A program made the translations under genes and the position numbers. DNA of 1,258 nucleotides, taken from assembly GCF_003334385.1 (NCBI RefSeq), contig NZ_QOWN01000119.1; one strand, 5' to 3'. The stretch's first letter is position 1. Each line of letters starts with the position of its first letter. The stretch comes from Escherichia coli. GTDB taxonomy: Bacteria; Pseudomonadota; Gammaproteobacteria; Enterobacterales; Enterobacteriaceae. Positions 73 through 384 of this stretch are shown piece by piece. The notes below the pieces were generated by a model. That model saw only the letters and a list, made by a program, of their open reading frames with translations, was not told the origin of the DNA and did not search any database.

Positions 73-384
73 ATGAACAAGAAAACCAAACGAACCTTCA
101 CCCCTGAGTTCAGGCTGGAATGTGCACAGCTGATTGTTGATAAGGGCTACTCATATCGACAGGCCAGTGAAGCGATGAATGTCGGTTCAACCACGCTTGA
201 GAGCTGGGTACGCCAGCTCAGGCGAGAGCGCCAGGGTATTACGCCCTCTGCCACACCCATTACTCCAGACCAGCAACGTATCCGCGAGCTGGAAAAGCAA
301 GTTCGCCGTCTGGAGGAACAAAATACGATATTAAAAAAGGCTACCGCGCTCTTAATGTCCGACTCGCTGAACGGTTCACGATAG
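73..384 (+). CDS. IS3-family transposase OrfA (103 aa): DNA-binding helix-turn-helix plus leucine-zipper regulatory/targeting protein
   Basis: ATG at 73..75 preceded by AGGTGA (63..68); stop TAG at 382..384. The N-terminal region ([40 protein letters not shown]) looks like an HTH. The C-terminal heptad leucines L73, L80, L87, L94 in [25 protein letters not shown] form a leucine zipper, as in IS911 OrfA. The ORF track calls a start at GTG 37, but that codon lies inside the putative promoter, so ATG 73 is preferred. Confidence 0.9.

Follow-up and report, generated by a model that had tools for sequence, protein, structure and literature searches.

The Shine-Dalgarno (SD)-like pentamer GGAGG, located upstream of the frameshift site in a common Escherichia coli insertion sequence, is most likely a by-product of the coding of OrfA with at most marginal stimulatory activity; this is the best explanation that we could draw from the sequence, and we hold it with slightly better than even confidence. 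The pentamer would primarily result from a Leu-Glu-Glu run in the C-terminal helix of OrfA, which is rich in Glu. As a frameshift stimulator the pentamer would be weak at best, acting through transient pairing with the 3' end of 16S rRNA at the limit of the distance over which such pairing is effective, because it lies two codons further upstream than the functional GGAG of IS911.

Organization of the Insertion Sequence

The whole stretch of DNA that was analyzed (the window, 1258 bp) is a complete IS3-family insertion sequence of the IS911-like lineage, and its nearest named relative is ISEc31. Judged from its sequence, it is an active-looking element. The following features were assigned to it:

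1-26 (no strand): left terminal inverted repeat, TGTAGTGG..., pairing with 1233-1258
73-384 (+ strand): orfA, 103 amino acids plus stop, from ATG 73 to TAG 384, with an HTH N-terminus and a Glu/Lys-rich, heptad-like C-terminus
312-316 (+ strand): GGAGG, SD-like pentamer within cTG GAG Gaa (Leu80-Glu81-Glu82 of OrfA), a candidate weak or marginal stimulator
330-332 (+ strand): ATT adjoining the heptamer on its 5' side, in the orfB (-1) frame, a possible low-level OrfB start at the same position as the AUU of IS911
333-339 (+ strand): slippery heptamer A_AAA_AAG, the programmed -1 ribosomal frameshift site that fuses OrfA to OrfB
339-1250 (+ strand): orfB frame past the shift, coding for the DDE/rve catalytic domain, the C-terminal part of OrfAB
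340-390 (+ strand): region 3' of the heptamer, sequence homologue of the IS911 three-way junction, with its basal stem destroyed and no compact stimulatory hairpin predicted
1233-1258 (no strand): right terminal inverted repeat, ...CCACTACA, pairing with 1-26

The arms of the terminal repeats are 26 nt long and imperfect (77% complementary), and they have the ends 5'-TG...CA-3' expected of the IS3 family. They were found in an inverted-repeat search with an 8-nt seed, since the default search passed over the imperfect arms. The orfB frame (phase -1) stays open between 201 and 1250, following a TGA at 198-200, and the overlap between orfA and orfB contains the heptamer, as is characteristic of IS3-family elements. 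Joining 73-339 to 339-1250 gives an OrfAB of 392 amino acids with 100% identity over 100% of its length to NCBI entries named 'IS3 family transposase'. A homologue search with this protein returned matches that were all at least 96% identical, which confirmed the fusion and offered no diversity. OrfAB also matched the NF033516 model (transpos_IS3, IS3 family transposase) with 360.6 bits against a cut-off of 160, and its precomputed Pfam matches are PF00665, PF13333, PF13683, and PF01527. Some NCBI models start orfA at GTG 37 instead, giving a protein of 404 amino acids.

A match to the Rfam family isrC (RF01387, 'Hfq binding RNA') was found at window positions 69-191 (+ strand), covering the full 123-nt model (150 bits, E = 2.5e-38) and overlapping the orfA ribosome-binding site and about the first 40 codons. 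The isrC family appears to be a fragment of this insertion sequence lineage and not an independent sRNA gene here.

The Slippery Heptamer

The C-terminal part of orfA houses the frameshift site and reads ATA TTA AAA AAG there. Ribosomes translating orfA would slip by -1 on A_AAA_AAG (333-339) and go on in orfB to make the OrfAB transposase, a step that we regard as essentially certain. Relatives were collected from two sources, phage-associated contigs and a set with one genome per species, which provided 160 loci with 48-100% amino-acid identity. These were reduced to 98 unique frameshift windows, forming 50 clusters at 90% identity. Almost every one of the 98 unique relatives keeps the heptamer, which is conserved at amino-acid identities as low as 48%; the heptamer is a genuine IS3-family site of -1 frameshifting.

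Several relatives depart from it. Some marine ones (L092, L105, L110, L119, and L089) carry A7 (A_AAA_AAA) instead of A6G. One relative (L122) reads TTG AAA AAG, that is GAAAAAG, which leaves no X_XXZ_ZZN heptamer and only an A_AAG tetramer. A copy from Salmonella enterica subsp. arizonae (L090:1758-1790) reads AAAAAAG-CTACCGCG and has lost one G directly after the heptamer, a loss that would put orfA and orfB in one frame; its protein match ends at residue 321, and so this copy is also truncated.

The Region 3' of the Heptamer

IS911 and most of the relatives carry a compact three-way junction of 57-61 nt that starts 4-6 nt past the motif. In the clade of the window, AGTGACA has replaced the AGAGCGC that forms the 3' strand of the basal stem in IS911, and four of the seven basal-stem pairs are broken. 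The predicted fold of 344-390 (-6.1 kcal/mol, z = +1.27) is worse than that of shuffled sequences and falls under the 7.6 kcal/mol criterion of Sharma et al., whereas the IS911 region used for comparison (L056:1757-1815) folds at -19.8 kcal/mol (z = -2.3) and that of the L042 relative at -21.7 kcal/mol (z = -3.4). When the rules of Sharma et al. were applied to the window clade, no conserved compact hairpin was found 4-10 nt past the motif, and RNAalifold analysis of 10 clade members gave compensatory changes in none of 36 pairs. No pseudoknot and no frameshift element of Rfam was detected in the window. Closures of 105-139 nt by 4-bp stems also came up in the clade and were judged to be scanning artefacts. 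Position 354 is A in the window and G in every other member of the clade, a difference that weakens the only local stem, itself a weak one. These folding results indicate that the ISEc31-like clade has lost the predicted 3' three-way junction of the IS911 type.

In the reporter system of Sharma et al. (PMC4066793 Table S3), A6G alone gave 0.29% frameshifting, and the level was 4.3% with both IS911 stimulators and 39% when A6G was combined with the IS3 pseudoknot. IS3 belongs to the same family as the window element and follows the same recoding logic on A_AAA_AAG, but it owes this high level with A6G to a strong 3' pseudoknot of a kind not detected in the window. Frameshifting in the window element would thus rest mainly on the intrinsic slipperiness of A6G, at a low level. 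From the sequence features it is probably driven by the heptamer, unless the distal GGAGG adds to it. A low level of frameshifting would fit the tight control of transposase in insertion sequences.

Comparison with the IS911 Cassette

Reporter work on IS911 (IS3 family, IS3 group; Polard et al. 1991, Rettberg et al. 1999, Prere et al. 2011) has used the cassette GAAATGGAGAATGAAATATTAAAAAAG / GAAATGGAGAATGAAATATTAAAAAAGGCTACC... (PMC8136817 Table 1), and this cassette was located inside loci annotated as 'IS3-like element IS911 family transposase'. When both elements were aligned on the heptamer, ATATT-AAAAAAG-GCTACCGCGCTCTT was common to them base for base, and the DNA was near-identical from ATATT to about 30 nt beyond the motif. 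Both have A_AAA_AAG, an ATT/AUU of the -1 frame adjoining it on the 5' side, and a -1 overlap of orfA and orfB; a stretch of 15 OrfA residues, the 3-bp target duplication, and the TG..CA ends are also common to both, while the OrfAB proteins are only about 56% identical. In IS911 the upstream arrangement is GGAG-N8-AUU and GGAG-N11-heptamer. In the window it is GGAGG-N13-ATT and GGAGG-N16-heptamer, and the position of the IS911 GGAG, two codons (6 nt) downstream of GGAGG, reads CAAAAT.

The first-pass annotation had placed GGAGG at 312-316 and ATT in the orfB frame at 330-332, immediately before the heptamer (333-339), with 16 nt between GGAGG and the heptamer, and all of these values proved exact; the gap from GGAGG to ATT is 13 nt. 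It had also proposed that the arrangement is the same as in IS911. This holds for ATT and the heptamer, which are identical in place, and not for GGAGG, which is displaced 6 nt upstream. Compared with an IS911-type cassette, then, the window has A_AAA_AAG and the AUU directly before it, and it lacks two other parts: an SD-like GGAG that precedes the motif by about 11 nt and AUU by 8 nt, and a three-way junction that begins some 6 nt after the motif. The combination of ATT and heptamer, with neither an SD placed as in IS911 nor a 3' junction, predicts a basal frameshift rate on the order of 0.3%.

Pairing and Spacing of GGAGG

Paired without gaps to the 3' end of 16S rRNA, GGAGG reaches -7.0 kcal/mol at an aligned spacing of 16, and the (G)AGGA register reaches -4.0 kcal/mol at an aligned spacing of 13. 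The corresponding values are -3.7 kcal/mol at a spacing of 10 for the GGAG of IS911 and -5.9 kcal/mol at 9 for dnaX. That GGAGG pairs with the anti-SD more strongly than the proven GGAG of IS911 is a counterpoint to its reading as a coding by-product. The dnaX site has the same heptamer and an upstream SD-like sequence as well, one that stimulates frameshifting through 16S pairing in elongating ribosomes. The dnaX sequence, AGGGAG, lies 10 nt from the motif and is accompanied by a strong 3' hairpin, whereas in the window the distance is 16 nt and there is no hairpin.

The range of SD-to-motif distances that supports -1 frameshifting in dnaX is given as 9-14 nt in a passage of one source (PMC5009743, citing dnaX work) and as 8-11 nt in a passage of another (PMC6321510, citing dnaX work). 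GGAGG-N16-heptamer lies beyond both ranges as quoted there, and the AGGA register, with its aligned spacing of 13, falls within the dnaX range. The laboratory rule of Sharma et al., derived from IS911 experiments, allows an SD interval of 6-17 nt (PMC4066793). Counted in this way, GGAGG has an interval of 17 nt in the window and AGGA one of 16 nt, so that the site qualifies at the outermost edge.

Chance Occurrence and Conservation of GGAGG

Counting both strands, GGAGG occurs once in the window, and dinucleotide shuffles gave an expectation of 2.13 +/- 1.44. When the Leu-Glu-Glu residues were held fixed and their codons recoded synonymously, GGAGG arose at the exact site in 17% of recodings with uniform codons, in 20% with E. 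coli usage, and in 36% with the usage of the element itself. GGAGG is thus not above chance. A codon-aware null of this kind is needed before SD-like motifs in Glu-rich coding regions are called signals.

The relatives were analyzed in the same way. Most of them are without any SD-like core, and the cores of at least 4 nt that do occur sit at aligned spacings of 10, 13, or 16, tracking in-frame GAG codons. Under synonymous recoding of 49 cluster representatives, neither the spacing-16 sites (7, with 8.5 +/- 2.5 expected) nor the spacing-10 sites (10, with 6.3 +/- 2.2 expected) differed significantly from expectation, and the same was true of clusters with any SD-like site at a spacing of 8-13 (17, with 13.7 +/- 2.9 expected). 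In the IS911 clade, about half of the variants have GGAA in place of GGAG.

GGAGG is invariant in the 14 unique orfA sequences of the window clade, in which 42% of third positions are invariant anyway. With 58% of third positions variable, the probability that both critical third positions over GGAGG stay invariant is about 0.18, so that a test for a deficit of synonymous changes at GGAGG by itself gave no significant result. In an alignment of 16 clade variants, 43 of 358 eight-codon windows were as conserved as 307-330 (two variable third positions or fewer). The invariance of GGAGG within this shallow clade is not statistically informative. A somewhat wider segment of 35 nt, 310-344, has a single variable site among the 16 variants, and the A-rich spacer 317-329 varies only at 321. 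This hints weakly at a constraint at the RNA level reaching over GGAGG. The hint is weak because eight-codon windows as conserved as this make up about 4-12% of the element.

GGAGG as a Possible Functional Signal

An alternative that we consider unlikely, although it deserves real weight, is that GGAGG works as its counterpart does in IS911, both stimulating the -1 shift by 16S pairing and driving 30S initiation at ATT to give OrfB alone. It is favored by the identity of ATT and heptamer with those of IS911 and by the pentamer itself, a perfect 5-nt core with the strongest pairing among all relatives that lies just inside the 6-17 nt interval. Its invariance in the clade, together with that of all but one position of the spacer, points the same way. 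The loss of the 3' stimulator also leaves the job to the upstream one, since at a site with no 3' structure a frameshift level above about 0.3% could come only from an upstream stimulator. A double role has a precedent in a passage of a review (PMC5009743), according to which one SD in an insertion sequence serves frameshifting and initiation.

The geometry argues against this alternative. For either role, GGAGG stands 5-6 nt farther away than its IS911 counterpart does, and its spacing exceeds the dnaX ranges in the passages cited above. DtoStart, the distance between the start codon and the 3'-terminal nucleotide of 16S rRNA, has its optimum for initiation at 13-14 (PMC9841429), and DtoStart for ATT is 21 with GGAGG and 18 in the AGGA register, versus 15 in IS911. 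At this distance, efficient SD-directed initiation at a start codon as poor as ATT seems unlikely from sequence, and GGAGG would be badly placed to drive it. The frequency with which Leu-Glu-Glu yields GGAGG by itself, the lack of SD enrichment at the family level, and the finding that the presence of SD-like motifs does not track the presence of ATT among relatives also speak against a functional signal of the IS911 kind.

A more specific scenario, which on these sequence data we find rather doubtful, is that in the ISEc31-like clade the stronger and more distal GGAGG (16-17 nt) has replaced the lost junction as the sole stimulator and as the driver of AUU initiation. Such a takeover, if true, would show an SD acting in nature at the very limit of functional spacing. 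The only mildly novel angle of this element is that its clade combines the absence of a 3' junction with a strong SD at the far end of the functional range. The element could serve as a natural test of the greatest upstream distance at which an internal SD can still act.

The ATT Codon

The reading of GGAGG as primarily a coding by-product leaves room for a contribution of ATT, which may permit rare independent initiation of OrfB as the positional counterpart of the AUU of IS911. Between TGA 198 and TTG 504, the orfB frame contains no near-cognate start (ATG, GTG, TTG, or ATT) other than this ATT. It requires that Ile be coded by ATA and Leu by TTA in the orfA frame. This ATA-TTA pair was found in 19 of the 50 clusters, versus 13.1 expected with independent codons (Fisher p = 8e-4, uncorrected for phylogeny), and ATT is thus modestly above chance.

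The codon is invariant in all seven enterobacterial clusters, which comprise the window clade, the IS911-like clusters, and the L042, L037, and L120 lineages, and adjacent synonymous sites vary in these sequences. The longest invariant run among the 16 variants of the window clade (88-100% identical) is 322-344 (AATACGATATTAAAAAAGGCTAC, 23 nt), which includes ATT and the frameshift site; the second longest is 59-80 (22 nt), which spans the orfA ribosome-binding site and ATG. In the family at large, ATT is replaced by TCT, CCT, CTT, TTT, ACT, or CAT in 31 of the 50 clusters with the heptamer kept, and its state changes at least 10 times on a tree of 45 tips. ATT is thus a recurrent, probably mildly favored but dispensable feature.

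These data also bear on a second alternative, in which neither motif is functional: GGAGG would be a pure coding by-product, ATT a neutral inherited choice of ATA-TTA, and only the heptamer would matter. The frequent gain or loss of ATT and the many clusters that lack it and keep the heptamer speak for this alternative, and the null results on SD-like sites count in its favor too. ATA is moreover not rare in the element (6 of 14 Ile codons), and to our knowledge OrfB alone has no established role in IS911. We nevertheless find this alternative improbable. Besides the ATA-TTA excess, the enterobacterial clusters share ATT with only about 57% amino-acid identity to one another and with saturated synonymous sites, and TTA is used for none of the 30 other Leu codons of the element. 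In addition, initiation at AUU has reportedly been established experimentally in IS911, as the titles of work by Polard in 1991 and Prere in 2011 indicate.

Possible Pairing of GGAGG within the mRNA

Masking of GGAGG by mRNA structure, which would make the site conditional on translation of orfA, is very improbable: the two candidate partners, CUCCAGAC (263-270) and CCAGAC (388-393), come from an inverted repeat of 11 nt and 91% complementarity (260-270 / 308-318, CUCCAGAC with GUCUGGAG) and from the MFE fold of 300-460, which pairs 308-316 with 385-393, but neither pairing is conserved or compensated in the clade and the z-score of the fold is only -1.6. In the first case the 5' arm varies at six clade positions with no compensation, and the inverted repeat is probably fortuitous; in the second, the change of T309 to C or A breaks its pair with the A of CCAGAC.

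Distribution and Decayed Copies

Copies at least 99% identical to the window are present in 938 E. coli records. RefSeq annotates such copies with a two-part CDS (73-339 and 339-1250) and the note 'programmed frameshift', and it labels the 100% identical copies only as 'IS3 family transposase'. ISEc31, whose RefSeq name is 'IS3-like element ISEc31 family transposase', shares the stretch CTGGAGGAACAAAATACGATATTAAAAAAG unchanged with the window and has 92.9% nucleotide identity to it across the full 1258 bp (a divergence of about 7%). The element and its recoding mechanism are thus of a well-known kind, a common insertion sequence of E. coli that is already annotated. For this widespread element, with a transposase level set by the frameshift site, the present analysis has little import beyond annotation.

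Many copies are flanked by 3-bp direct repeats (target duplications), such as aag/aag, gct/gct, cgc/cgc, and tac/tac. The duplication is absent in some others, among them the copy in a prophage head-tail joining gene of E. coli E2863 (L001:1481-1500 / 2759-2780), which has the flanks tct and gcc; CCGGAT occurs on both flanks of this copy, at differing offsets. Another locus (L013:263-300) matches the window through AAAAAAGGCTAC and continues with unrelated sequence, and the element is thus interrupted or truncated 5 nt past the heptamer. A decayed copy with 88% identity was found on the Serratia marcescens plasmid pE28_003 (L084:373-740). GGAGGAA has become GGAGTAA there, which creates an in-frame stop in orfA, and the heptamer reads AAATAAG.
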